Origin: SAR202 cluster bacterium
Lineage (GTDB): Bacteria > Chloroflexota > Dehalococcoidia > Lucifugimonadales > UBA2962
Assembly: GCA_009392275.1 (NCBI GenBank)
Contig: VFGV01000020.1
Location: forward strand, 2,207-66,206
Direction of reading: 5' to 3'
Length of the DNA: 64,000 bases
Positions 48,864 through 60,383 of the stretch are shown one piece after another; the stretch's first letter is position 1; each line of letters starts with the position of its first letter. The notes under the pieces are model-generated. The model had not been told where the DNA came from and made no database searches. It saw only the letters and a list, made by a program, of their open reading frames with translations. Position numbers and translations under genes: made by a program.

Positions 48864-48935
48864 AACCAGTACTCCGGCATGCATAATATATTCGCTTCTT
48901 CCTTATCACTGGTTTGTCGCCTATAATCCACTATT

Positions 48936-49364
48936 ATGAGTAAATATATTCCAAGTCCATTAAAGTACGTCAGAGATCAAGTCGAACTATATGAAAAAAG
49001 TGGAGGAACTGAAGGCACAACCATGCAAGGCCTGCCTGTAGTTATCGTCACCCATAGGGGTTGGAAAACAGATGCTATTAGAAAAACTCCGTTAATGACC
49101 GTTAAAGATGGTCCAAATTACGTCCTCATAGCATCCCAGGGCGGGGCCCCAAAACACCCTCTTTGGTATCACAACTTTAAAGCAAATCCTGAGGTTGAGA
49201 TACAAGACGGACCAAGTGTGATACCCATGACGGTCGAAGAAATAGAAAACCCTATGGAAAGAAAGCGGCTATGGGATTTGTCTGTTGAAGCATATCCTCC
49301 ATATGACGAATATCAACAAAAAACTGACAGATTAATTCCTGTTTTTCTGGCAACACCAAACTAG
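48936..49364 (+). CDS. Deazaflavin (F420H2)-dependent nitroreductase/quinone reductase, Ddn family
   Basis: RKTPLM, ASQGGAPKHPLWYHN..ANP and YQQKTDRLIPV. Confidence 0.92.
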   Translation: MSKYIPSPLKYVRDQVELYEKSGGTEGTTMQGLPVVIVTHRGWKTDAIRKTPLMTVKDGPNYVLIASQGGAPKHPLWYHNFKANPEVEIQDGPSVIPMTVEEIENPMERKRLWDLSVEAYPPYDEYQQKTDRLIPVFLATPN

Positions 49365-49449
49365 TAAATTCTAAACCTGTTTTCATCTAGAATAGATTGC
49401 TACAACAATAGATACTCTAATAGATTATATTCTACATACTATTTGTTTT

Positions 49450-49515
49450 TGTAGTTTATATTTGACAATCGTTGTCTCACTAAGTAGACTGTAATAGTGT
49501 CGAATATATAACACA
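49450..49515 (+). promoter_or_regulatory. Sigma70-type promoter of the fasciclin gene with two TGT-N12-ACA boxes
   Basis: -35 TTGACA at 49462-67, 17-bp spacer, -10 TAGACT at 49485-90. Boxes: TGTAGTTTATATTTGACA (49450-67) and TGTCGAATATATAACACA (49498-515). Confidence 0.75.
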
Positions 49516-49582
49516 TTGCTTCATCAATTGTGGTTTATATAGTTTAGGCATAGCTCTAAATCAAACTTAAGGAGATTACAAT

Positions 49583-50629
49583 TTGATGAGTATTAATTTT
49601 TTCCAACAGTGGATCAATTATCGAAATACTAAAGCCCTAGTAATTATGGGAATCTTAGCAATTCTCGGCTCCATTTTAGTGGCCTGTAGCGAAGAGGCTG
49701 CTACTGAAGAAATGGTGGAGCAGGAAACGATGGTTGAACAAGAAATGGCTGTGGAGGCAACTGTCGTAGTTGAGGAAGTAGTCGAAGAAGTAAGCAAAAC
49801 CATTGTAGATATAGCTGTCGAAGACGGCAGATTCACTACACTGGTAGCAGCATTACAAGCAGCAGAACTTGATTCTGTGTTAGCTGGAGAGGGTCCATTT
49901 ACCGTATTCGCTCCAACCGATGATGCTTTCGCCAAATTACCTGAGGGTACAGTTGCCTCTCTGCTGGAAACAATACCAGCATTGAAAGACATCCTGTTAT
50001 ATCACGTGGTAAGCGGTGATGTGCTTGCTGCAGACGTAGTTACGCTTGAATCAGCTACAACCTTACAAGGTCAAACTGTTTCTATTTCCGCGATGGGAGA
50101 TGTTGTGAAAATCAATGATTCCCAAGTCATAATCACTGACATCCAGGGTAGCAACGGAACAATCCATGTGATTGATACCGTACTTCTGCCTCCAGCTGAG
50201 GAAGTAGTCGAAGAAGTAAGCAAAACCATTGTAGATATAGCTGTCGAAGACGGCAGATTCACTACACTGGTAGCAGCATTACAAGCAGCAGAACTTGATT
50301 CTGTGTTAGCTGGAGAGGGTCCATTTACCGTATTCGCTCCAACCGATGATGCTTTCGCCAAATTACCTGAGGGTACAGTTGCCTCTCTGCTGGAAACAAT
50401 ACCAGCATTGAAAGACATCCTGTTATATCACGTGGTAAGCGGTGATGTGCTTGCTGCAGACGTAGTTACGCTTGAATCAGCTACAACCTTACAAGGTCAA
50501 ACTGTTTCTATTTCCGCGATGGGAGATGTTGTGAAAATCAATGATTCCCAAGTCATAATCACTGACATCCAGGGTAGCAACGGAACAATCCATGTGATTG
50601 ATACCGTACTTCTGCCTCCAGCTGAGTAA
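49583..50629 (+). CDS. Fasciclin (FAS1) domain lipoprotein with two identical FAS1 domains
   Basis: Lipobox LVAC; GPFTVFAPTDDAFAKL, ILLYHVV and NGTIHVIDTVLLP each occur twice. RBS AAGGAG. Confidence 0.93.
   Translation: MMSINFFQQWINYRNTKALVIMGILAILGSILVACSEEAATEEMVEQETMVEQEMAVEATVVVEEVVEEVSKTIVDIAVEDGRFTTLVAALQAAELDSVLAGEGPFTVFAPTDDAFAKLPEGTVASLLETIPALKDILLYHVVSGDVLAADVVTLESATTLQGQTVSISAMGDVVKINDSQVIITDIQGSNGTIHVIDTVLLPPAEEVVEEVSKTIVDIAVEDGRFTTLVAALQAAELDSVLAGEGPFTVFAPTDDAFAKLPEGTVASLLETIPALKDILLYHVVSGDVLAADVVTLESATTLQGQTVSISAMGDVVKINDSQVIITDIQGSNGTIHVIDTVLLPPAE
49771..50626 (+). repeat. Exact tandem duplication, 426-bp unit, two copies
   Basis: 49771-50200 matches 50197-50626 with no mismatch seen by eye; TGAG sits at all three junctions. 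Confidence 0.92.
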
Positions 50630-50661
50630 CCCTGGATAACCTTCTCGGCATTAAATTGCCG

Positions 50662-50700
50662 GAAAAGGATCGGGAGGCCTAATGTCTCCCGATCCTTTTC
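50662..50700. terminator. Bidirectional intrinsic terminator between the convergent fasciclin and regulator genes
   Basis: GAAAAGGATCGGGAGGC-CTAAT-GTCTCCCGATCCTTTTC stem-loop with A-rich and T-rich ends. Confidence 0.85.
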
Positions 50701-50720
50701 TTAATCACAGAGAGATTCTT

Positions 50721-51638
50721 TTATAAACTGGATTGCTGGTCTGGATGACTGGGATCGAACCAGCGACCTCCTGGTTTTAGTCCTAGGTTTAGAGCTTTAT
50801 ATATTCTCAATACTGCCCCAAAAGTTACATTCTGCTTGCCTTGCTCTAAAGCACTTATATATGTCCGATCAAGTTCAGAAGCATTCGCAAGATCTTGCTG
50901 TGTCATCTGTTTCTCTAACCTTGCAGCCCTGATTCTAGATCCAAGGGCAGCTAAATGTTCCTCCAAAGTGAATCCCCCATCGGTAATTCCGACCAAACTT
51001 CTAGCCTGCGTTACGCCTTCGAAAATATTTAATGCCACTGCGTCACAGTTAAGGGAATTTAGTTCAACCTCCCCACTAGTCAAAGCTAGGCCACCGATCA
51101 ATATTTTAGGACTGGGGCTTATCGATTTCAAAGCACGTATTATAGATTTAGCATTGTTTATATAAGTTGGTATTGTGACAGAAATACCCACCATATCCAC
51201 AGATCTGTTCTTAACAAACTCAACAAGATCTTTCCCTGGGGTAGGGCCTCCCATAAAATCAACTTCCCATCCATCAATAATCAAAAAATCACTTAGCATC
51301 CTGGATCCCACCATATGAGTATCTCCCTCAACAGGTACAACAACTGCCCTAAATCCATTAGATTTACGCATCGTACTGGCCTGTGCTCTCAACTCGCTCA
51401 TTATTTCTAGAGTAATTACCGTGCCCAGGTGTTCGACTCCGATATTAATTTCTCCATCATGCCACATTTGCCCTATAACAGATTGGGAATAAGCTAATAG
51501 GTCAACATAAACAGCCTGAATTTCAAGTCCTCTATTCTGAGCATCGGACACAGCTCGCCTGGCCTTATCTGCATCTCCACCTAGTAATGCAGCAACATAC
51601 CGATTTCTCAAAATTTCCAAATCTTGACTTGTACCCAT
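50721..51638 (-). CDS. Cobalamin-binding (CarH/LitR-type photosensor module) transcription regulator with C-terminal XRE HTH
   Basis: Four-helix cap with IGQMWHDGEINIGVEH (W-x9-EH); B12 Rossmann domain GDTHMVG...GWEVDFMG...VGISVT...LIGG; C-terminal RLEKQMTQQDLANASELDRTYISALEQGKQNVT. Confidence 0.88.
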   Translation of the reverse strand: MGTSQDLEILRNRYVAALLGGDADKARRAVSDAQNRGLEIQAVYVDLLAYSQSVIGQMWHDGEINIGVEHLGTVITLEIMSELRAQASTMRKSNGFRAVVVPVEGDTHMVGSRMLSDFLIIDGWEVDFMGGPTPGKDLVEFVKNRSVDMVGISVTIPTYINNAKSIIRALKSISPSPKILIGGLALTSGEVELNSLNCDAVALNIFEGVTQARSLVGITDGGFTLEEHLAALGSRIRAARLEKQMTQQDLANASELDRTYISALEQGKQNVTFGAVLRIYKALNLGLKPGGRWFDPSHPDQQSSL

Positions 51639-51668
51639 AAAAGGACTCCCGTTATAAATTATCTATTT

Positions 51669-51805
51669 TGTAGAATATAGTTGACATCTCTTTGTTGTCA
51701 TGTTACATTTATACCATATTAATGTAGATTATATGAGACATTGATATTCATACGAGCTATAAATAAGCTACACATAAGCATATCAGATGTCAAATATTAA
51801 CGACA
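51669..51805 (+). promoter_or_regulatory. Divergent promoter region with three TGT-N12-ACA boxes
   Basis: -35 TTGACA at 51681-86, 17-bp spacer, extended -10 TGtTACATT at 51701-09. Boxes at 51669-86, 51723-40 and 51788-805. Confidence 0.78.
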
Positions 51806-51826
51806 AACTGACATGGAGTAAACGAA

Positions 51827-52015
51827 ATGATTTTGTTAAAGGGCTGCGGTAGGTGTGACGGTGACATTGTGATGAGGGGTGATATACATGGCAAATACCT
51901 GCAATGCTTGATGTGCAGCCGAGTAAAATATATAGAGACTACGCCAGAGATTAGTGCTCGTCGTAGCCACACTCGCCGTAGGTTATTTAAACCAACCGAC
52001 TTTGTTGCGATATAG
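51827..52015 (+). CDS. Small zinc-ribbon protein
   Basis: CGRC...CLMC with a basic tail; RBS GGAG upstream; first ORF after the promoter. Confidence 0.7.
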   Translation: MILLKGCGRCDGDIVMRGDIHGKYLQCLMCSRVKYIETTPEISARRSHTRRRLFKPTDFVAI

Positions 52016-52206
52016 CAATCAAACTTGTTAACAGATCTTCATGGGATGACGAAAATTTAACTAACAGTTAAACAAGTTGTAATCATCAGATAACAGTAAT
52101 CATGTTGGTTTATGTTGTACTGGATAGGTGGACTCTCTCACATACGTCGTTTGCCTGTCTAAACATCTAAGACAATCATCAAATTTTAAATAAAGTAGAG
52201 AGTATT

Positions 52207-53328
52207 ATGCATTGGGCAATAGAAAAAGAAGATAGAACAGATAGTGATCCAACAGGAGTTGACGGCTTCGTGAAGCGCATGGAGAGTGAGCTTCGAGGAG
52301 ACGGACCTCCTATGGAGGGTTTCCACTTCCTTAATACTCCTATGGACATGTTAACGTTCACACGAGAAATCGAGGACGAAATTCGGTCTAGGGAGCAGGG
52401 AGCTGATCTATACGTTGGATTTCAAACAGCTGAAAAGATGATCATTGAGGGCAAGCGGTACCAAAAAATCGATCAGGCTGGGGCTAAGGTAGTCGCTTTT
52501 GGACAGGGGGTACCGCCCGAAACGGTTATCCCTTCCGACATGCAATGGGTAACTCTTGAACGGAGTACAACCGCGCTAGCGAATCAGTGGTACTTAATTT
52601 CCACCAGACCTACACCGATTGGATTTGTAGCATGGGAAACCTCGGCTGAAGACCGGTTCGCCAAAGGAGGACTGTCCGAACCAGGCAAAATGTTCAAAGG
52701 ATTTGCTACCAATGACACACGAGTCATAAATGCAATTGTTAGCCACCTGGAAGACTTGAACCAACAAAATCTGTCATTAGAAAGTGCTCGAACTGCTCTG
52801 AAAACGCAATTGAAAACTCCGATAAAAAAGATCATGACGCTAACGGAAAGATCAGAATCAGTTCTTATGAAACTTTTAAGAAGCCAGGCAGCACAACTTG
52901 CTAATTCTAATGCAGCGGAATTGATTTTATTTGAATTAACTGCTGCATCATACTTGGCAAGCCCGTACCCAGAAGAGGATCGAAGCAAGTGGATCCGAAT
53001 ACTAAATGAACGTGACTTAATGCTGTTCGGTCGGTCGCCGATCGCAAAACAGCTAAATCAACTCGAAACCAGTGGAATTTCAGCTGGAGCAATCCTCCCG
53101 ACAACTCATGGATTTAGACATCTTGCCGAATGGGCTGAAAAAGAGAATATTGACGTGATTATCATACCTTTTTCATTAGTAGATCCAGGATTACTGGAAA
53201 GATTGCGTGGATATAGTCTTAGGCAGTTGCTTGAAAACACATCAAAGCAAGTAGTGGTAGTAGATGAAGATGGCACGATGTGGCATGCAAATCCCGGATC
53301 ACTTCCTGCTGGCGACCAAGTTGCTTAA
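52207..53328 (+). CDS. DICT sensory domain fused to a universal stress protein (USP)-like domain
   Basis: REIEDEI...VGFQ...RYQKI...VVAFG...LANQWYLI...VAWE fits a DICT pattern. C-terminal LAEWAEKENIDVIIIP...QVVVV is USP-like. Confidence 0.65.
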   Translation: MHWAIEKEDRTDSDPTGVDGFVKRMESELRGDGPPMEGFHFLNTPMDMLTFTREIEDEIRSREQGADLYVGFQTAEKMIIEGKRYQKIDQAGAKVVAFGQGVPPETVIPSDMQWVTLERSTTALANQWYLISTRPTPIGFVAWETSAEDRFAKGGLSEPGKMFKGFATNDTRVINAIVSHLEDLNQQNLSLESARTALKTQLKTPIKKIMTLTERSESVLMKLLRSQAAQLANSNAAELILFELTAASYLASPYPEEDRSKWIRILNERDLMLFGRSPIAKQLNQLETSGISAGAILPTTHGFRHLAEWAEKENIDVIIIPFSLVDPGLLERLRGYSLRQLLENTSKQVVVVDEDGTMWHANPGSLPAGDQVA

Positions 53329-53360
53329 TTAAATTATTAGATAACTACCGGATCAAAATA

Positions 53361-54815
53361 ATGACTTATTCAACAAACCCAACAGTAGTATGGTTCAGAC
53401 GAGATCTACGTTTATCAGACAACAGAGCTCTAACTGAAGCGGTAACCAAGCATGCTCCTATTCTCCCAATATACATATGGGGATATGAGGGTGATTTGAC
53501 CGCATCAAACAAAACTAGATCAGTTTGGTGGCTTTTAAAGTCTCTTCGAAACCTAGATCATGACTTAAAGTTAGTTGGCTCAAAATTAGTGATACTCAAG
53601 GGAAACCCTTTAGGTGTTATTTCTAAACTTGCGTATCAAATATCGCCTCGAGCCATATACTGGAACAAAGTCTACGAGCCAAACCGAATATCACTCGACA
53701 GAAAGATTTCTCTTCGTCTAGATAATCTCAATATAGAACACAGTTCGTTTGAGGGACACCTGTTATGGAACCCGGAGGAAATAAGAAATGTTGACGGTGG
53801 CCATTACCAAACTTTTACTGCTTTCTGGAATAAAGCAAACAAATTACCTATGTTTGGAGCCAGTTCGCAAAAACCCAATGTTTTACCTATGCCCTTGTTT
53901 GATCACGACAGTATTTCTATAGATGAGCTCGAGAGAAACACGACGGCCAGCAGGAATAAGAACTTAGTAAATTACTGGTCTCCAAGCGAAGATAGTGCAA
54001 ACCAACTTTTGGGCAACTTTATCTCAACGAAACTAGAGGTATATGAAAAGACTCGAAACATACCTCACATCAGCAATTCAAAGTTATCACCATATATCCA
54101 CTTCGGCCAGGTAAGCCCTTTTACGATTTGGTCAAGAACTATATCTGAGCTAGAAAACATAGATGCTCAAAATCAATTTTTGAAACAACTTGCTTGGCGT
54201 GACTTTGCCCACTATGTGCTAATCCATAATCCCGGGGCAATCAATAACCCAATCAAACCACAATTTCAGCGGTTTCCTTGGGTAAATGACCCCAAAGGTT
54301 TCAGCTCTTGGAAATTAGGTGAAACAGGTTACCCAATAGTTGATGCTGGTTTGAGGGAACTATCTGAAACTGGATTCATGCATAATCGGGTGAGAATGGT
54401 CGCAGCTTCATTTTTAACCAAACACCTGTTAATTCACTGGAATAAAGGAGCCAGACACTTTGAAGATATGTTGGTTGATGCCGATCTGGCAAACAACATT
54501 ATGGGTTGGCAATGGGTTGCAGGAACTGGAACTGACTCGATGCCTTACTTCCGCATATTTAATCCAACACTTCAAGGAAAACGTTTTGATCCACACGGAA
54601 AGTATGTGAAACGATGGATACCAGAACTATCCAAAATTCCGCAAGTTTGGGTGCACCAGCCTTGGCAGAGCCCTGAGAGAACGCTAAGCATGGTTGGAAT
54701 TAAATTAGGTAAAACATACCCATTCCCCATTATTGATCACGATATGGCCAGAGTTAGGGCTCTTGACGCATACAAAGTAACGCAATTAACAAACAAAGTT
54801 AGTCAATTAATTTAG
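53361..54815 (+). CDS. phrB: Deoxyribodipyrimidine photolyase (cryptochrome/photolyase family)
   Basis: VWFRRDLRLSDN, SKLSPYIHFG, WRDF, TGYPIVDAGLREL, HNRVRM, DADLANNIMGWQW and RIFNP. Likely start is ATG 53361. Confidence 0.95.
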   Translation: MTYSTNPTVVWFRRDLRLSDNRALTEAVTKHAPILPIYIWGYEGDLTASNKTRSVWWLLKSLRNLDHDLKLVGSKLVILKGNPLGVISKLAYQISPRAIYWNKVYEPNRISLDRKISLRLDNLNIEHSSFEGHLLWNPEEIRNVDGGHYQTFTAFWNKANKLPMFGASSQKPNVLPMPLFDHDSISIDELERNTTASRNKNLVNYWSPSEDSANQLLGNFISTKLEVYEKTRNIPHISNSKLSPYIHFGQVSPFTIWSRTISELENIDAQNQFLKQLAWRDFAHYVLIHNPGAINNPIKPQFQRFPWVNDPKGFSSWKLGETGYPIVDAGLRELSETGFMHNRVRMVAASFLTKHLLIHWNKGARHFEDMLVDADLANNIMGWQWVAGTGTDSMPYFRIFNPTLQGKRFDPHGKYVKRWIPELSKIPQVWVHQPWQSPERTLSMVGIKLGKTYPFPIIDHDMARVRALDAYKVTQLTNKVSQLI

Positions 54816-55412: not shown

Positions 55413-56897
55413 ATGAGTAGTTCTCAACAAACTCAGACTGCAAATAAATCAAAACAAATTGTTTTGATCACCGGTGCCACTGGTTATGTTGGAGGTCGTC
55501 TGCTGAAAAGATTGGAGGGTAGAAAACTATCAATTAGATGTATTGCTCGTAATCCTGAGTACCTAATGCCTCGAATCGATTCAAATACCGAAGTAATTCC
55601 AGGAGATGTATTAGACTCACAAACTCTGGGATTAGTTATGAAAAACGTCACAACGGCTTTTTATCTAATTCACGCTATGGGTAAATCGAAAAACTTTGAG
55701 CACGACGAACTTTTGGGCGCTCGTAATTTTGGATATGCAGCGAAACAAGCAGGTGTAAAAAGAATCATATATCTTGGCGGCATAATAAATCAGGATGAAC
55801 AATTGTCACCGCACCTGAGAAGTCGTAAAGCCGTTGGTGAAGCGCTTAGAGAATCGGGAGTTGAGATTATTGAGCTGAGAGCCTCCATAATAATTGGTGC
55901 AGGAAGCGCTTCATTTGACATGATAAGAGCTTTAGTTGAACGCCTCCCAATAATGCTGATGCCTAGATGGGTCTCAACACCTGCTCAACCAATTGGTATT
56001 AAAGACGTTCTAGACTACCTTGAGGAATCCATCGAGATTGACACACAAGGGCGAACTATTTTTGAGATTGGCGGCTCTAAAGCTTTGTCATACCGAAGCA
56101 TGATGGAAGAGTACGGTTTGCAACGTGGTTTGCGTCGACTGATGATTCCTGTGCCTGTACTGACTCCAAGGCTATCTAGCCTGTGGCTTGGTTTAGTTAC
56201 TCCATTGTATGCCAGGGTTGGACGAACTCTGATTGATAGCATAAAACACTCAACAGTAGTTCGTGATCACGCGGCCAGATCTATATTTAAAATCACCCCT
56301 ATGTCACCTGAAGACGCTATTCGCCTTGCTTTAAAACATGAGAGGGAAGAAATAGAGCAAAGTAATTGGGCTGATGCTGTGTCATCATCTGGAATTCCAA
56401 TGCGTTGGGGGGGGGTCCGCCTCGGATCAAGAATAGTAGACATGCGTAAAATTAATGTAAACGCTTCTCGAGAACAAGCTTTTCGGCCAATTAGGCTAAT
56501 TGGTGGAGATTCAGGATGGTACTATGGCAACTGGCTATGGCGCCTCAGAGGATGGATGGATCTCCTCGTCGGCGGAGTCGGTCTGCGGAGAGGAAGAAGA
56601 TACCCAAACAAGATAACTACTGGAGACTACCTTGACTGGTGGAGAGTGAATCTTTATGAGAAAGATCATCGGCTAGTTTTAGAAGCTGAAATGAAAACCC
56701 CGGGGCGTGCCTGGCTAAGCTTCGAAGTGAAACAAACAAATCAAGGGTGCCAAATTATCCAAACTGCCGCATTTCAACCGGTTGGTTTGCTAGGTTTGGC
56801 ATATTGGTATTGCCTGTACCCAATTCATTCTGTGATGTTTAGAGGAATGTTAAATGGTATCGCCAGGCAAGCACTATCACCGGTAACACGAATTTAA
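55413..56897 (+). CDS. NAD(P)-binding SDR-like oxidoreductase with C-terminal DUF2867 (YbjT-like)
   Basis: TGATGYVG, RASIIIGAGSASF; C-terminal IGGDSGWYY..WLWRLRGWMD, AEMKTPGRAWL and GLAYWY. Confidence 0.88.
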   Translation: MSSSQQTQTANKSKQIVLITGATGYVGGRLLKRLEGRKLSIRCIARNPEYLMPRIDSNTEVIPGDVLDSQTLGLVMKNVTTAFYLIHAMGKSKNFEHDELLGARNFGYAAKQAGVKRIIYLGGIINQDEQLSPHLRSRKAVGEALRESGVEIIELRASIIIGAGSASFDMIRALVERLPIMLMPRWVSTPAQPIGIKDVLDYLEESIEIDTQGRTIFEIGGSKALSYRSMMEEYGLQRGLRRLMIPVPVLTPRLSSLWLGLVTPLYARVGRTLIDSIKHSTVVRDHAARSIFKITPMSPEDAIRLALKHEREEIEQSNWADAVSSSGIPMRWGGVRLGSRIVDMRKINVNASREQAFRPIRLIGGDSGWYYGNWLWRLRGWMDLLVGGVGLRRGRRYPNKITTGDYLDWWRVNLYEKDHRLVLEAEMKTPGRAWLSFEVKQTNQGCQIIQTAAFQPVGLLGLAYWYCLYPIHSVMFRGMLNGIARQALSPVTRI

Positions 56898-56938
56898 CAC
56901 TATCCGGGTACTAACCAGAACAAAAAGGATAAACTAAA

Positions 56939-57703
56939 TTGATTAATGAAAAACGTAATTACGTTGTATTTGGAGCTACTGGCACGATAGCTTCTGCGCT
57001 ATCAGCAAAACTCAGAGATCAAGGTCACCAATTATTTTTGACTGGCAGGAATACCGATAAAATAAGGACTTTATCAGACTCGTTAAAAAGCCCTGTGGCG
57101 GTATGTGATGCTACCAGCAATGAAGATGTGGCTAAAATAATGGAGCAGGCTCTTGAAGAATTGGGAACTATTCATGGAGTAGTAAACTGTGTAGGGTCTC
57201 TTCTAATTAAGCCCGCTCACCTGACAACTGAAGATGAATGGCAAAATACAATAGATACTAATCTGAAATCAGCCTTTCTAATCATAAGAAATGCTTCCAA
57301 ATCAATGATGAGGACAGGCGGCTCCATTGTGTTGTTGTCGTCGGCAGCCGGAAGATATGGAATGTCAAATCATGAAGCGATCGCTGCTTCAAAAGCCGGT
57401 GTTATAGGACTTACAAAATCAGCTGCGTCTACATACGCTTCTCGTGGCATTAGAGTCAATTGCGTCGCGCCAGGATTTGTTGAAACGCAGATGACTGCGG
57501 AGATTGCGGCAAACGAAACCACTATGCAAGCCATTACCTATATGCATCCGCTAGGAAAAACAGGCACCCCAGTAAATATTGCATCTGCAATAGGATGGCT
57601 ATTGGATGAGGAGCAAAACTGGATTACTGGTCAGGTTATAGGGGTAGACGGCGGCCTTTCAACTGTGCAACCAAGACTAAGAGTCAGCAGCACAGCAAAG
57701 TGA
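56939..57703 (+). CDS. Short-chain dehydrogenase/reductase (atypical catalytic motif)
   Basis: FGATGTIA, NCVGS and IRVNCVAPG; HEAIAASK stands in place of YxxxK. Confidence 0.88.
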   Translation: MINEKRNYVVFGATGTIASALSAKLRDQGHQLFLTGRNTDKIRTLSDSLKSPVAVCDATSNEDVAKIMEQALEELGTIHGVVNCVGSLLIKPAHLTTEDEWQNTIDTNLKSAFLIIRNASKSMMRTGGSIVLLSSAAGRYGMSNHEAIAASKAGVIGLTKSAASTYASRGIRVNCVAPGFVETQMTAEIAANETTMQAITYMHPLGKTGTPVNIASAIGWLLDEEQNWITGQVIGVDGGLSTVQPRLRVSSTAK

Positions 57704-57878
57704 ACAGAATGATCTCTCTAGTTTTTATTACCAGCCATTAAAAAAAACACCAACACATTCACTACTAATCTACTAAACTAGACAAGAGTTTAAACTAAAA
57801 TAAATTATTCTTTAATCAGTTATATGTTAGAGGTAAAGAGTGTTTGGGCCAATATAAATAGTTTCAACTAAAGTAACT

Positions 57879-58352
57879 ATGAGTAAATCAGAATCACAAT
57901 TCAAAATAAGAAAAGCCACTAATGAAGATATAGATATACTCGCGATTTTTTCGTTAGCGGTGATAAAAGAGGGCGATGGGGTTTCTATACCTTCTGAACA
58001 CGTCAAACCCGGAATTGAAGCCGTCCTTAAAGATGAGAGTAAGGGCTTTTATTTGGTAGCTACTGCGGATGACAATTCCGATCCCATCGGATGCCTTATG
58101 GTAACCTTCGAATGGAGTGATGTGAACAATGGCTTTTACTGGTGGATTCAAAGCGTATACGTTGATCCAAAATGGAGGCGCAAGGGTGTATATTCTGCTT
58201 TGCACAACCGAATAATAAAATTAGCAAAATCAACTGCAAACGTCACAAGAATAAAGCTATATGTCCATGAAACAAACATAACAGCGCAAACGACATACAT
58301 GGCACAAGGCATGAAAGAAGCTCCTCACAAAATTTTTGAATTCTACCTTTAA
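57879..58352 (+). CDS. GNAT family N-acetyltransferase
   Basis: EWSD...WWIQSVYVDPKWRRKGVY and N..AQ..Y. Confidence 0.9.
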   Translation: MSKSESQFKIRKATNEDIDILAIFSLAVIKEGDGVSIPSEHVKPGIEAVLKDESKGFYLVATADDNSDPIGCLMVTFEWSDVNNGFYWWIQSVYVDPKWRRKGVYSALHNRIIKLAKSTANVTRIKLYVHETNITAQTTYMAQGMKEAPHKIFEFYL

Positions 58353-58357
58353 CAGAA

Positions 58358-58819
58358 TTAAATTTTAAATTCATACATAAAATTCGAAGTGTCTATCATG
58401 CCCAATCTTTTGTAAATTTTTTGCGCATTTAGATTGTCGTCATTTACATGGATCTTTATAGTACAAACATTACCTTTGTCTTTAGCCATCTTGATAGTAT
58501 GTTTGTATAGGGCTTGGAATACACCTTTTCTCCTCCAATTACTATCAACAAACACCTCTTGTATCCACCAGGTGAACGCATTGTTACCTGGATCCCATTC
58601 ATATGTAATCATCAGGCAGCCAATAAGGGTTGAATTATCTGATTCTGTGGCAACTAAATACATGCCTTTAGATCGATCTTTGATAGGTGCAGATACTCCA
58701 GACAACAGTTTATCTGAATGCACGGACATATCTAATGATTTCCTGAGCAACTCACAAAACTCTGCAAGTTTTTTAGCATCCTCTATGCGAGCTAATCGTA
58801 TAGCAAATTTATTATCCAT
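58358..58819 (-). CDS. GNAT family N-acetyltransferase (paralog of its neighbour)
   Basis: WWIQEVFVDSNWRRKGVF and NLNAQKIYKRLGM. Confidence 0.9.
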   Translation of the reverse strand: MDNKFAIRLARIEDAKKLAEFCELLRKSLDMSVHSDKLLSGVSAPIKDRSKGMYLVATESDNSTLIGCLMITYEWDPGNNAFTWWIQEVFVDSNWRRKGVFQALYKHTIKMAKDKGNVCTIKIHVNDDNLNAQKIYKRLGMIDTSNFMYEFKI

Positions 58820-58895
58820 TGTGTTGTTAGAAATTTATTGTAGAAGATTTTATATAATCAAACAAAGGAATATTCATTATTTACGAAATTAACGC

Positions 58896-60383
58896 ATGGC
58901 AAAAAATAAACATATATACATAATTGGAGCCGGGCCAGGAGGACTAGCCACAGGTATTCTCTTGTCCAAATCAGGTGTAGATATAACTATATTAGAAAGG
59001 TCAAACACTGTAGGAGGTCGAACTTCATCAATATCAGAAAATGGCTTTAAATTCGACCTGGGACCCACATTTTTTCTCTATCCGCAAGCTCTTGAAAAGA
59101 TTTTTCAATCCGTTGGTCTTAATCTAATGGATGAAATAGAGATGGAACGACTTGACCCTCAATACAGAATAATCTTTAAATCGGGCGGGCACATTGATGC
59201 TACAAACGACATAAAACTAATGAGCGATCAAATAAAGAATTTCGCTCCTGAAGATGCAAATGGCTTTAGTAAATTTATGGACGAAAACCGTGAAAAACTT
59301 GTAAAAATGGAACCATGTCTTACTAATCCATTTTTAAATATATTTTCATTAATTTCTCCACGTTTACTAAAACTACTGCCAATGGTTAAACCAAACCAAA
59401 GCCTTGATACATACTTGAAACGATTTTTTAAAGATCCACGTATAAGACTAGCTTTCAGTTTTCAGTCTAAATATTTAGGAATGTCTCCGTTCGTATGTCC
59501 TAGTTTATTTTCTATACTTTCATTCATTGAATATGAATATGGTATATATCATCCGACAGGTGGCTGTAATGAAATCACCAAAGTCATGGCGCGGATAGCC
59601 AAGGAAAATGGAGTTGAAATCAAACTAAACGAGCCGGTCGAAGAAATACTTTTTGATAAAAACAAAGCCACCGGGGTAAGAACAAATAAAGGAAATTATA
59701 GGGCCGATGCAATAGTGATGAATGCAGATTTCGCACGTGCGGCAAAGACTCTAATTCCAAACAGGAAAAGAAAACGATGGACAGATCAAAAAATCAGTAA
59801 TAAAAACTTTTCGTGTTCGACATTTATGTTGTATCTAGGTATAGAAGGCCTTTATGATGTCCCTCATCATAATATATATATTTCTGAAGATTACCAAAGC
59901 AATTTAGAAGATATAGAACGTCGGCATGTACTTAGTAAATTACCTTCATTTTACGTTCAAAATGCATGTGTAACTGATCCTTCATTAGCCCCTAAAGGAA
60001 ATAGCACTTTATATGTATTAGTCCCAGTATCACATGAACATGAAAATATAGACTGGACCGCAAATACAAGTAGTTATAGAAATCTGATAATACAAGAGTT
60101 AGAAAAGGTTGGGTTTACTAACTTAAAAAATAGAATTATTTATGAAAAAATAATTACGCCTGCAAATTGGTCAAATCAGTACAACATTCACCTGGGTGCC
60201 ACTTTTAATTTATCTCACAATTTGAAGCAAATGCTGTATCTCAGACCAAGAAACAGATTTGAGGACTGTGAAGGAATATACCTTGTCGGCGGTGGAACTC
60301 ACCCAGGCAGTGGATTACCAGTAATATTCGAGTCTGCTGGAATTACAAGTAAATTGATAGCTGAAGATATCATCTTGAATTAG
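58896..60383 (+). CDS. crtI: Phytoene desaturase family protein (CrtI/CrtN-like)
   Basis: IIGAGPGGL, FDLGPT, FQSKYLG, SCSTFMLYLG, DPSLAP and LVGGGTHPGSGLPVI. Confidence 0.85.
   Translation: MAKNKHIYIIGAGPGGLATGILLSKSGVDITILERSNTVGGRTSSISENGFKFDLGPTFFLYPQALEKIFQSVGLNLMDEIEMERLDPQYRIIFKSGGHIDATNDIKLMSDQIKNFAPEDANGFSKFMDENREKLVKMEPCLTNPFLNIFSLISPRLLKLLPMVKPNQSLDTYLKRFFKDPRIRLAFSFQSKYLGMSPFVCPSLFSILSFIEYEYGIYHPTGGCNEITKVMARIAKENGVEIKLNEPVEEILFDKNKATGVRTNKGNYRADAIVMNADFARAAKTLIPNRKRKRWTDQKISNKNFSCSTFMLYLGIEGLYDVPHHNIYISEDYQSNLEDIERRHVLSKLPSFYVQNACVTDPSLAPKGNSTLYVLVPVSHEHENIDWTANTSSYRNLIIQELEKVGFTNLKNRIIYEKIITPANWSNQYNIHLGATFNLSHNLKQMLYLRPRNRFEDCEGIYLVGGGTHPGSGLPVIFESAGITSKLIAEDIILN

Follow-up and report, generated by a model that had tools for sequence, protein, structure and literature searches.

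The locus raises the question of which protein acts on five boxes of the form TGT-N12-ACA that overlap two promoters, and which signal that protein follows. The window, i.e. the whole stretch of DNA analysed, consists of 64,000 nucleotides from a SAR202 cluster bacterium. The boxes, promoter-like sites and genes are listed below in window coordinates, with no strand assigned to the boxes and half-sites.

49419-49436, no strand: partial box, good right half-site (A1 side), 31 bp before A1, matrix score 11.6
49450-49467, no strand: box A1, its last six bases forming the -35 TTGACA of the fasciclin promoter
49462-49490, plus strand: fasciclin promoter-like site TTGACA-17-TAGACT, from a consensus scan only, 10/12 matches
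49498-49515, no strand: box A2, near the position where transcription from the fasciclin promoter should begin
49529-49546, no strand: possible further half-site, left half fitting the motif, 31 bp after A2, suggested by alignment only
49583-50629, plus strand: two-fasciclin-domain protein, secreted or lipoprotein-like (Pfam Fasciclin 2.2e-77, two stretches)
50721-51638, minus strand: regulator, 305 aa, with a B12-binding_2 four-helix bundle, a B12-binding Rossmann domain and a C-terminal XRE/C-protein-type HTH
51669-51686, no strand: box B1, which overlaps a -35 (rightward promoter) and a -10 (leftward promoter-like site)
51674-51701, minus strand: regulator-facing promoter-like site ATGACA-16-TATATT (promoter scan)
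within box B2, minus strand: alternative -10 TATAAT for the regulator promoter, read from the sequence
51681-51709, plus strand: promoter-like site of the Zn-ribbon/DICT/photolyase operon, TTGACA-17-TACATT, TG-extended (promoter scan)
51723-51740, no strand: box B2, shortly 3' of the point where transcription from the rightward promoter should begin
51788-51805, no strand: box B3, in the leader, 22 bp 5' of the Zn-ribbon ORF
51827-52015, plus strand: Zn-ribbon-like protein, 62 aa, two CxxC pairs, no family match
52207-53328, plus strand: DICT sensory-domain protein, 373 aa (Pfam DICT 3.9e-6)
53280-54815, plus strand: photolyase/cryptochrome-family protein (Pfam DNA_photolyase 8e-40, FAD_binding_7 9.8e-85)

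The five 18-bp boxes described in a sequence-only reading of this DNA were all located exactly at the positions it had given, and the partial reverse copy at 49419-49436 which it had added was present, with only one half being good. Its account of the promoters was borne out as well. At both promoters the first box ends in the -35 TTGACA (at 49462 inside A1 and at 51681 inside B1), and a second box lies at or after the start site, A2 beginning at about the expected start and B2 being placed just downstream of it. The distance of 30 bp reported between the box at 51669 and the start of the regulator corresponds to a gap of 30 bases, with 31 bases to the first base of the ATG (51638). The proposed repressor layout and autoregulation are both consistent with the promoter scan.

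The motif, its uniqueness in the genome and its conservation were computed. The bare pattern TGT-N12-ACA was seen 17 times in the window against 18.05 +/- 4.22 in shuffles, indicating background level, and genome-wide it gave 311 matches (0.20 per kb). The richer half-site motif TGT(A/C)GA(A/C)TA, which was derived from 26 boxes of 14 loci, is not at background; five of the 17 window matches fall within 2.4 kb and have the inner consensus in common. As the bare pattern was without enrichment, it was dropped as a test and cross-trained matrices were used instead, the whole assembly (1,532,285 bp, 89% complete) being scanned. The palindromic matrix built from the five boxes scored them at 20.3-21.8 as the five top-scoring sites of the genome, with a gap before the sixth at 15.5, although this test is circular. 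The non-circular scans were in accordance with it: the matrix from the three boxes at 516xx-517xx ranked the two boxes at 494xx second and fifth, and the matrix from the latter two ranked the other three third, fourth and fifth genome-wide, so that the genome scan suggested in the earlier reading supported the motif. Three other sites were rejected as operators, each having a score of 15.5 or less, namely C8:20609 (preceding a dehydrogenase gene), C22:78215 (preceding an ABC ATPase gene) and window position 48915 (preceding the F420H2-dependent reductase gene); at 48915 conservation in L001 and L014 is limited to the left half and a TATAAT. The Rfam scan of 49300-52300 gave only RAGATH-22 at chance level (27.3 bits against a gathering score of 120.3), and the fasciclin leader folded mildly better than shuffles (z -1.79).

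Conservation upstream of orthologs was also observed, the boxes being present before regulators, fasciclin genes and DICT/Zn-ribbon genes of metagenomic loci whose regulators are 31-79% identical. In the 240 bp before 40 family regulators (9,448 bp) 23 strict TGT-N12-ACA boxes were counted compared to 2.1 expected (Poisson P 2e-16, with some loci being near-duplicates), while the rest of the same 40 loci contained 58 strict boxes in 255,359 bp. These upstream boxes belong to 17 of the 40 loci, and the strict box is absent from the 240 bp in the other 23. With the window-trained matrix, 16 of 34 loci had their best site at most 250 bp upstream of the regulator, and four more had it before the neighbouring fasciclin, DICT or Zn-ribbon gene. 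A box with the exact sequence of B1 occurs in L039, a locus with a regulator of 34% identity. The group L003-L008 at 28% identity has the architecture in common and shows a weak box-like site at -50, with a best upstream score of 6.8; its regulators may use a different operator.

Among the close relatives, all 18 columns of B1 (window, L001 and L013, where the adjoining spacer varies) and of B3 were invariant, as were 17 of the 18 columns of A2 (window, L001, L013 and L015) and of B2. Box A1 is present in L001 and in part in L013 and L015, and in the last two the alignment revealed weak conservation of the partial box at 49419-49436. The candidate half-site at 49529-49546 does not match TGT-N12-ACA and lies within a very conserved 5' leader. 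The intergenic DNA between B2 and B3 is conserved as much as the boxes in these relatives, so conservation there does not single the boxes out.

The regulator is single-copy in the genome (89% complete), in which no second HTH of its kind was found and HTH_8 gave no match, nor did it in the regulator; the regulator is hence the sole candidate binder. Judged from the sequence, the five boxes are very probably the operators of this regulator encoded at 50721-51638. The likeness of its HTH to C.Esp1396I, which the sequence-only reading had put forward, was confirmed by phmmer, the C-terminal 91 residues having the solved chains of C.Esp1396I as best matches (4fn3 1.6e-9, 3clc 4e-9). The HTH_3/HTH_31 match covers residues 231-286, C-terminal to the B12 module. 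The recognition stretch LDRTYIS is common to both proteins, about 25 of 54 aligned residues are identical by our own count, and L256, D257, R258, T259 and Y260 are invariant in 26/26 family members. According to the paper on the C.Esp1396I operator OM (PMC3488213), R35 reads the outer TG/CA steps, T36 and R46 read GAC/GTC, and recognition of the central TATA is indirect; the same paper places T2, G3, A5, G13, T14 and C15 in the OM 19-mer. A second C.Esp1396I paper describes 16 of 18 OM bases as dyad-related and TATAGTC as common to all three operators. The OM operator given in the sequence-only reading is consistent with these published descriptions as far as they extend. The equivalent of R46, the GTC reader in C.Esp1396I, is Gln in 26/26 family members, and the window boxes keep the outer TGT/ACA and the central T-A, with a variable inner triplet that is G-A-(A/C) in the family. 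This replacement and the poorly conserved inner triplets in the window boxes indicate that the read-out differs from that of C.Esp1396I.

The kinship with C.Esp1396I brings in a different reading, in which the protein is a true C-protein-like concentration switch, activating as well as repressing, with B12 tuning dimerisation and light possibly lowering expression. We consider this improbable. The HTH is closest to a protein that is both activator and repressor depending on the operator, and several boxes per promoter with a box near the regulator's own gene recall the C/R promoter. However, the boxes here overlap the -35 hexamers and start regions instead of lying just upstream of the -35, which resembles the repressed M promoter, and both -35 hexamers are already the consensus TTGACA, so activation is not needed. 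The neighbours of the regulator are fasciclin, Zn-ribbon, DICT, photolyase, F420H2-dependent reductase and dehydrogenase genes; restriction or modification genes, which such a switch would lead one to expect, are absent among the annotated neighbours.

The nature of the signal is suggested by the part of the protein that the sequence-only reading had left unmentioned. Domain and motif evidence revealed an N-terminal CarH-type B12 photosensory module, the domain make-up and signature residues being computed as above. The Pfam matches were B12-binding_2 (2.8e-9) and B12-binding (1.4e-18), and the CarH-type motifs W-x9-EH, His beside Trp and DxH are present. As defined in PMC10979010 and PMC10442372, W-x9-EH and (E/D)xH make up the adenosyl pocket and the lower His ligand. 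Residues W59, E69, H70 and H108 are invariant in 26/26 family members, position 106 is D or E in 26/26, and H60, directly after W59, is retained in 19/26. By our own mapping onto the numbering in PMC10979010, these residues align with Trp61, Glu71-His72 and His108 of SasPcob. Their spacing is that of Trp131, His132, Glu141 and His177 of TtCarH, whose His132 is the upper ligand in the light state, as given in PMC10442372. The regulator scored 48.8 bits with the NCBIfam CarH equivalog NF052513, far below the cut-off of 400. A PduO-type cobalamin adenosyltransferase, which could supply the cofactor, is encoded in the genome.

The AF2 model of the regulator had a mean pLDDT of 84.4, and its best Foldseek matches were photocobilins, the B12 domain of a Chloracidobacterium MerR-family protein, and TtCarH. 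The two-copy model scored 0.42 compared to 0.00 for the best of three controls, a mark that 20 of 30 proteins solved as same-chain pairs attained, as did 1 of 23 with single-chain structures, these counts holding only roughly for the present model as its own alignment was used. Agreement between the runs was at least 100% of contacts, with a partner pLDDT of 75 or more. In the predicted interface, residues 65-81 of one copy meet residues 127-144 of its partner, an arrangement that would be the CarH-like head-to-tail contact; the passing score may reflect memory of solved CarH-like dimers.

A regulator that binds the boxes and senses cobalamin supply or redox instead of light, its B12 module being a ligand sensor, would be in keeping with the absence of H60, the counterpart of the CarH light-state ligand, from 7/26 members, and B12-binding domains do have non-photic roles, the same Pfam domains matching corrinoid proteins and methionine synthase. 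This reading is nevertheless decidedly improbable, as W-x9-EH is invariant in 26/26 members and is tied to light-dependent CarH-like receptors in PMC10979010, the best structural matches are photoreceptors, and a photolyase and a DICT protein are targeted, with no genes for cobalamin uptake or synthesis among the targets. That the boxes are not the regulator's operators at all, being AT-rich promoter sequence or sites of another factor with a chance fit to TGT-N12-ACA, is very improbable, for although the bare pattern is at background, a -35 hexamer lies inside two boxes, the centres are TATA-like as in -10 boxes and the whole intergenic region is conserved in close relatives, none of A2, B2 and B3 falls on the promoter hexamers of its own strand, a scan of the genome with cross-trained matrices recovers the boxes, the boxes accompany the regulator in distant loci with other neighbours and gene orders, and no other HTH of the type or HTH_8 domain occurs in the 89% complete genome.

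The regulon of the light-responsive regulator favoured here appears from the sequence to comprise the Zn-ribbon/DICT/photolyase operon, the fasciclin gene and the regulator itself, which would be on in light. A DICT homologue adjoins the regulator in 7 loci with 40-95% identity, and a Zn-ribbon homologue does so in L001, L013 and L039. The DICT domain is predicted to function in light response according to PMC8612252. The photolyase-family protein gave NCBIfam matches below the cut-offs, and its true start is likely the ATG at 53361. The fasciclin gene adjoins the regulator in 7 related loci; it has no obvious connection to light, which counts against the favoured explanation.

In libraries of three studies, metatranscriptome contigs extend over the regulator, the fasciclin gene and the operon; the Zn-ribbon, DICT and photolyase genes are joined in one of them. 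On the operon side, the first positions of the contigs are 51715, 51734 (where adapter letters precede it), 51743 and 51827, and one on the regulator side ends at 51721. These ends fit starts just after the predicted -10 elements, which is a hint at most, since neither ends nor strand nor level can be taken from contigs, the places differ and DNA is possible in RNA libraries.

On balance it is likely that the boxes are operators of a one-component B12 light-switch repressor, with AdoCbl-dependent repression in the dark and release by light. For DNA binding, which we infer, the model is that two HTH domains would pair on each of the 18-bp pseudo-palindromes, where the outer TG/CA would be read by the conserved Arg in the DRTY helix and the central TATA through bending. 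We likewise infer that the protein binds B12, that it forms the oligomer, that it represses and that it responds to light, for which the following course is proposed. In the dark the AdoCbl-loaded B12 modules would associate head to tail, and this contact would tie together proteins at paired boxes 48-65 bp apart, i.e. the -35 box and the start-site box. The dark assembly would block the promoters of the fasciclin gene, of the Zn-ribbon/DICT/photolyase operon and of the regulator itself. Light would cleave the Co-C bond, whereupon His60 beside Trp59 would become the upper ligand, the B12 assembly would break up, cooperative binding would be lost and the genes would be switched on. The box spacings of 48, 54 and 65 bp are not all whole helical turns, which counts against this explanation.

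Light sensing through B12 in gene control is known from CarH/LitR, which are of MerR type, and from AerR acting on CrtJ. CarH operators are tandem direct repeats; the operators of the present regulator are 18-bp palindromes tens of bp apart. Like CarH/LitR (TtCarH, PDB 5C8D/5C8E), the regulator has a four-helix bundle and Rossmann domain, Trp-His, Glu-His and lower-ligand His signatures and a predicted head-to-tail contact, and its locus has a photolyase among the targets with dark repression and light release expected. In contrast, the HTH of CarH/LitR is MerR-type and N-terminal, whereas the regulator has no MerR match and carries an XRE/C-protein HTH at the C-terminus. Photocobilins (PDB 8J2W/8J2X/8J2Y) are the best sequence and fold matches of the B12 module and have the same signature residues; they possess a C-terminal bilin-binding globin domain and control enzymes, whereas the regulator has an HTH and no globin domain.

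CrtJ consists of PAS plus a Fis-type HTH. No HTH_8 (Fis-type) domain was found in the 89% complete genome, so the likeness to CrtJ is best regarded as convergent. That TGT-N12-ACA is the PpsR/CrtJ consensus, as the sequence-only reading had pointed out, agrees with the CrtJ palindrome in PMC9144470, where the paired palindromes either span -35 and -10 or are separated, with looping proposed for the latter. In the AerR/PpaA and CrtJ/PpsR systems of purple bacteria, according to that paper, a B12 photosensor likewise controls repression at paired TGT-N12-ACA palindromes. Two proteins are involved there, and the DNA-binding domain of CrtJ is unrelated, whereas sensor and DNA binder are here in one chain.

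Among solved structures, C.Esp1396I (PDB 3CLC, 3UFD, 4FN3) comes closest to the HTH, and it has the DRTY recognition helix. Its operator plan of outer TG/CA, inner G-A-(C/A) and central TATA is matched here in the outer and central parts, the inner triplet agreeing in the family and varying in the window boxes. Both systems have more than one operator in a control region, and in both the regulator gene has a site of its own. The C proteins of restriction-modification systems are small and stand-alone (about 80-100 aa, the matched chains having 74-99 aa), whereas the regulator has 305 aa, with a 220-aa sensor before the HTH. The operators OL and OR of C.Esp1396I share one 35-bp operator, according to PMC3488213, whereas the operators here are 48-65 bp apart.

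More complex B12 photoreceptor architectures in genomes lack functional study, as stated in PMC10979010. No described B12 plus XRE photoreceptor was found in a literature search that included passages of PMC8717448 and PMC9016551, although a listing in a domain survey is possible. The family counts 2,624 proteins at E 1e-30 or better, and among its best 150 representatives (50% identity) almost every one is full-length, with about 300 aa. Its distribution is patchy, with 8/61 genomes of the same order, source genome included, having a member. A joint reading is offered more tentatively, being plausible and still rather doubtful as a whole: the regulator would be the first, defined by its operators, of a large uncharacterised class of one-component B12 photoreceptor repressors, with the sensor N-terminal, the C-protein-type HTH C-terminal, and two pairing surfaces in the protein. 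One surface would be the light-labile head-to-tail B12 contact and the other the pairing of HTH domains on each palindrome. The two together would form bridges or loops that light can break, connecting operators 2 to 6 helical turns from each other, and the co-inherited DICT-domain protein would be a further component in the same pathway of light response.

The B12 module makes the locus interesting, as the locus would represent a second way to couple a B12 sensor to DNA. It supplies a defined 18-bp operator, two target promoters and a small regulon including a photolyase. It thereby makes testable how a C-protein fold reads DNA without R46, whether a B12 switch can work through broken bridges between distant operators, and whether light is sensed by uncultured marine Chloroflexota. 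If true, the system could serve synthetic biology as a green-light or optogenetic part whose DNA-binding mode is unlike that of CarH, and it would provide marine Chloroflexota and others with a compact light switch.

The regulator, a 305-aa protein, is the predicted binder of five 18-bp TGT-N12-ACA boxes. All five boxes claimed by the sequence-only reading were found by reading the sequence from 49000 to 52600 and by pattern search. The partial reverse copy described at 49419-49436 is also present but one-sided. The promoter-like sequences listed below were obtained by consensus scan.

Features of the locus
50721-51638, minus strand: regulator, 305 aa, with Pfam domains B12-binding_2 (11-83), B12-binding (97-201) and HTH_3/HTH_31 (231-286)
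49450: box A1, before the fasciclin gene, 18-bp TGT-N12-ACA
49498: box A2, before the fasciclin gene, 18-bp TGT-N12-ACA
51669: box B1, between the regulator gene and the Zn-ribbon ORF, 18-bp TGT-N12-ACA
51723: box B2, in the same region, 18-bp TGT-N12-ACA
51788: box B3, 18-bp TGT-N12-ACA, within the leader and 22 bp ahead of the first ORF
49462-49490, plus strand: promoter-like TTGACA-17-TAGACT; -35 within A1, A2 starting at about the expected start
51681-51709, plus strand: promoter-like TTGACA-17-TACATT with TG extension; -35 within B1, B2 just downstream
51701-51674, minus strand: promoter-like ATGACA-16-TATATT; -10 within B1, facing the regulator gene

Spacing of box starts
Window, partial copy to A1: 31 bp
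Window, A1 to A2: 48 bp
Window, B1 to B2: 54 bp
Window, B2 to B3: 65 bp
Related loci L002, L012 and L015: 52-54 bp
Related locus L036: 42 bp
Related loci L033 and L039: 21 bp

The scan was in accordance with the claimed layout, as in both rightward promoters the -35 TTGACA lies in the first box and the second box at or after the expected start, and the gap from B1 to the ATG of the regulator is 30 bases, as had been stated. On the minus strand B2 also contains a perfect TATAAT, a candidate alternative leftward -10. Many of the spacings are close to whole helical turns, while 48 and 65 fit poorly; one idea is that near-whole-turn spacings would suit bridging by the B12 modules, with which the 48 and 65 bp spacings do not fit well. 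Metatranscriptome contigs covered all the locus genes, joined the genes of the rightward operon and had ends near the predicted starts, which gives a hint only. One RNA-library contig spans 51827 to beyond 55000.

The bare TGT-N12-ACA pattern alone has little meaning. It was observed 17 times in the window against 18.05 +/- 4.22 in shuffles, and 311 times in the genome (0.20 per kb). Five of the 17 window matches are clustered within 2.4 kb and have a common inner sequence. A palindromic matrix was used to scan the window's own assembly (1,532,285 bp, 23 contigs, 89% complete). The matrix from all five boxes scored these at 20.3-21.8 and the next genome site at 15.5, a test which is circular. 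With the matrix from B1-B3 only, A1 and A2 ranked 2nd and 5th genome-wide, and with that from A1 and A2 only, B1, B3 and B2 ranked 3rd to 5th. The genome scan suggested by the sequence-only reading thus recovered the boxes of each promoter with the matrix from the other promoter, which indicates that the A and B intergenic regions have a common motif absent elsewhere in the assembly. The best remaining matches in the genome, at scores of 14.6-16.6, were two intergenic sites on contigs outside the window, C22:78215 before an ABC-transporter ATPase gene and C8:20609 before a dehydrogenase gene; the former, which ends in ACT, resembles the box upstream of the L002 regulator. Judged from sequence, both may be weak extra targets. 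A box-like sequence at 48915-48932 ends 3 bases before the ATG of an F420H2-dependent quinone reductase gene. In L001 and L014 a TATAAT and the left half of this sequence are kept and the right half is not; it was not counted as an operator and looks instead like the -10 of a leaderless transcript.

The conservation of the boxes was analysed at related loci. The metagenome scan gave 80 loci, or 90 including the genome-collection scan, and the 41 whose match spans both sensor and HTH were used. All but L041 have 100 bp or more of upstream sequence, which left 40. Strict boxes are enriched before the regulators of the family, which supports conservation of the motif upstream of orthologs: 23 were found in the 9,448 bp at -250 to -10 of the regulator, in 17 of the 40 loci, and none in that interval in the other 23. 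The remainder of the same loci held 58 strict boxes in 255,359 bp, giving an expectation of 2.1 and a Poisson P of 2e-16, which is too generous because of the near-duplicates L001/L013, L022/L023, L031/L035 and L045/L046. The window-trained matrix was scanned over 34 loci; L001, L017, L023, L035, L038, L041 and L046 were excluded because of redundancy or insufficient length. In 16 of the 34 the top-scoring site of the entire locus fell no more than 250 bp upstream of the regulator, and in 13 of these 16 it scored at least 10. For L012, L033, L036 and L039 the best site was found either upstream of the fasciclin gene or in the interval that separates the regulator from the DICT or Zn-ribbon gene. 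L003-L008 have a weak site only (score 6.8), which, like the 23 loci lacking a strict box, counts against the operator reading. At L039, whose regulator is 34% identical to that of the window, a box identical to B1 was found, and in L036 two almost perfect palindromes stand at a spacing of 42 bp. Among close relatives no change is seen in B1 or B3 and a single one in B2, in contrast to the 15-bp spacer from B1 to the -10, which is largely rewritten; the B2-B3 stretch is also conserved in these relatives, so the footprint at the B region is not clean. A2 is kept in 17 of 18 columns, including in L015 (regulator 49% identical). Good box-like matches were also seen within the regulator coding sequence of several distant family members, at L018 (5384), L040 (3931), L015 (2892) and L034 (about 1839, where the first letter differs), 371-392 bases after the match start, and none inside the regulator gene of the window. 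The L018 match appears to encode a conserved LVE(F/Y)V stretch. These internal matches may be chance products of the codons or an internal operator.

The likeness of the HTH to C.Esp1396I, a restriction-modification controller protein, was borne out, as its chains were the best solved relatives of the last 91 residues of the regulator (4fn3, 1.6e-9; 3clc, 4e-9), followed by C.AhdI and C.BclI. The alignment has RLEK-MTQ-DLA and LDRTYIS in common. In the complex of C.Esp1396I with its operator OM, the outer TG is read by R35, GTC by T36 and R46, and the central TATA via backbone contacts and bending (PMC3488213). In all 26 regulator-family members aligned, D257, R258, T259 and Y260 are invariant and the position equivalent to R46 is Gln. 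In the boxes conservation is firm at the outer TGT/ACA and the central T-A and looser in the inner triplet; the Gln and the invariant DRTY agree with this pattern. Among 52 half-sites (26 boxes, 14 loci), where the first three positions are fixed by the selection of boxes, G was found 29 times at position 5, A 35 times at position 6, T 44 times at position 8 and A 49 times at position 9. The OM operator put forward in the sequence-only reading, proposed to match B1 at 16 of 18 positions, was compared with the published texts and agrees with what they state, namely T2, G3, A5, G13, T14 and C15 (PMC3488213) and, in a second paper, 16 of 18 OM bases as dyad-related and TATAGTC as common to all three C.Esp1396I operators.

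The B12 part of the regulator gave photocobilins as top matches (8j2x, 2.5e-15), with TtCarH, a CarH comparison protein, lower in the list. The AF2 model (mean pLDDT 84.4) has four helices, a Rossmann domain, a short low-confidence linker and a five-helix HTH, and Foldseek with this model returned photocobilins, a Chloracidobacterium MerR-family B12 domain and many TtCarH entries. W-x-EH and E/DxH are motifs of light-dependent CarH-like receptors, with Trp61, Glu71-His72 and His108 named in the photocobilin SasPcob (PMC10979010); for TtCarH Trp131, His132 (upper ligand after light), Glu141 and His177 are named (PMC10442372). The regulator has W59, H60, E69, H70, D106 and H108. W59, E69, H70 and H108 occur in every one of the 26 aligned members, as does D or E at position 106, and H60 is found in 19. 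A PduO-type adenosyltransferase is encoded in the genome. The two-copy model of the regulator passed the mark (0.42 against 0.00 for the best of 3 controls), which 20 of 30 solved one-chain pairs and 1 of 23 solved single chains reached, counts that are rough with our own alignment. The runs showed at least 100% contact agreement and a partner pLDDT of at least 75. At the predicted interface residues 65-81 in one chain meet 127-144 in its partner, with the HTH domains not named in it, and as modelled this is a CarH-like head-to-tail contact; the pass may only reflect likeness to solved dimers of the CarH-like kind.

The genes beside the boxes were then considered. Rightwards of the B region the first ORF encodes 62 aa with two CxxC pairs and is without a family match, the second gene a 373-aa DICT-domain protein, and the third a photolyase/cryptochrome-family protein. 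As listed, with a GTG start, this third gene overlaps the DICT gene, and it more likely starts at the ATG at 53361. The DICT domain is predicted to act in light response (PMC8612252). Beyond the photolyase (55413-60383) lie genes for an NAD-binding/DUF2867 protein, a short-chain dehydrogenase, a GNAT acetyltransferase and an amine-oxidase-type flavoprotein, and the matrix scan found no box among them. Similar gene sets stand beside photolyase genes in the light-induced clusters of other bacteria. By tblastn, DICT homologues of 40-95% identity were found in differing orientations at seven related loci (L001, L015, L023, L025, L028, L033, L036), fasciclin homologues at seven (L001, L002, L012, L013, L015, L034, L044), Zn-ribbon ORF homologues at three and photolyase homologues at two (L001, L044). 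The gene downstream of the A region encodes two fasciclin domains and converges on the regulator gene. These domains are identical, arising from an exact 426-bp tandem duplication at 49771-50626 (2.0 copies, 100% identity); the match in L001, L002, L012 and L013 is only about 206 aa, one domain, and in four RNA libraries the repeat region appears as 456-base contigs, the period plus 30, as is usual for short-word repeat assembly. The copy number in the window and its relatives is uncertain. The fasciclin leader 49516-49582 is almost invariant across the window, L001, L013 and L015, though the L015 regulator is 49% identical. Its predicted fold (z -1.79) would pair the ribosome-binding site and the start codon with 49521-49537. 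No Rfam family matched this leader, which may contain an additional half-site at 49529 or an RNA element. A G+C-rich inverted repeat at 50650-50700, between the converging genes, overlaps a chance-level RAGATH-22 match and may be a two-way terminator, which the terminator scan did not list for want of a T run.

Binding of the boxes by another protein was weighed. The regulator is single-copy in the 89%-complete assembly, where no other HTH like its own was found at E 0.01. TGT-N12-ACA is, as had been noted, the CrtJ palindrome, and the CrtJ partner AerR is a B12 photosensor (PMC9144470). The parallel between CrtJ/AerR and the regulator is striking, but the DNA-binding domains are unrelated; no HTH_8 domain, and therefore no CrtJ/PpsR-type DNA-binding domain, was found in the 89%-complete assembly. 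The sequence evidence makes it highly probable that the five boxes are operators of the regulator itself.

In the genome-collection scan the window was placed in marine Chloroflexota/Dehalococcoidia MAGs, the regulators of L001 and L002 being 95% and 76% identical. The gene is present in 8 of 61 genomes of the same order, the window's included, a patchy distribution. A protein search recovered 49 homologues that share all three domains, and apart from automatic labels none of them carries a functional name. When 1.84 billion representatives were searched with a profile, 2,624 proteins reached E 1e-30 or better; of the top 150, almost all are full-length at about 300 aa. No NCBIfam model claims the regulator, and the literature searched named no fusion of a B12 sensor with an XRE HTH, while paywalled reviews and supplements may list the architecture. 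As predicted from sequence, the regulator is fairly likely to be a dark-state, AdoCbl-dependent repressor with the boxes as its operators, and light would release the AdoCbl-loaded, dark-bound protein from them. The sensor and the DNA-binding fold of the family are both of known kinds; their arrangement, of which no description was found, comes with a defined operator and regulon.
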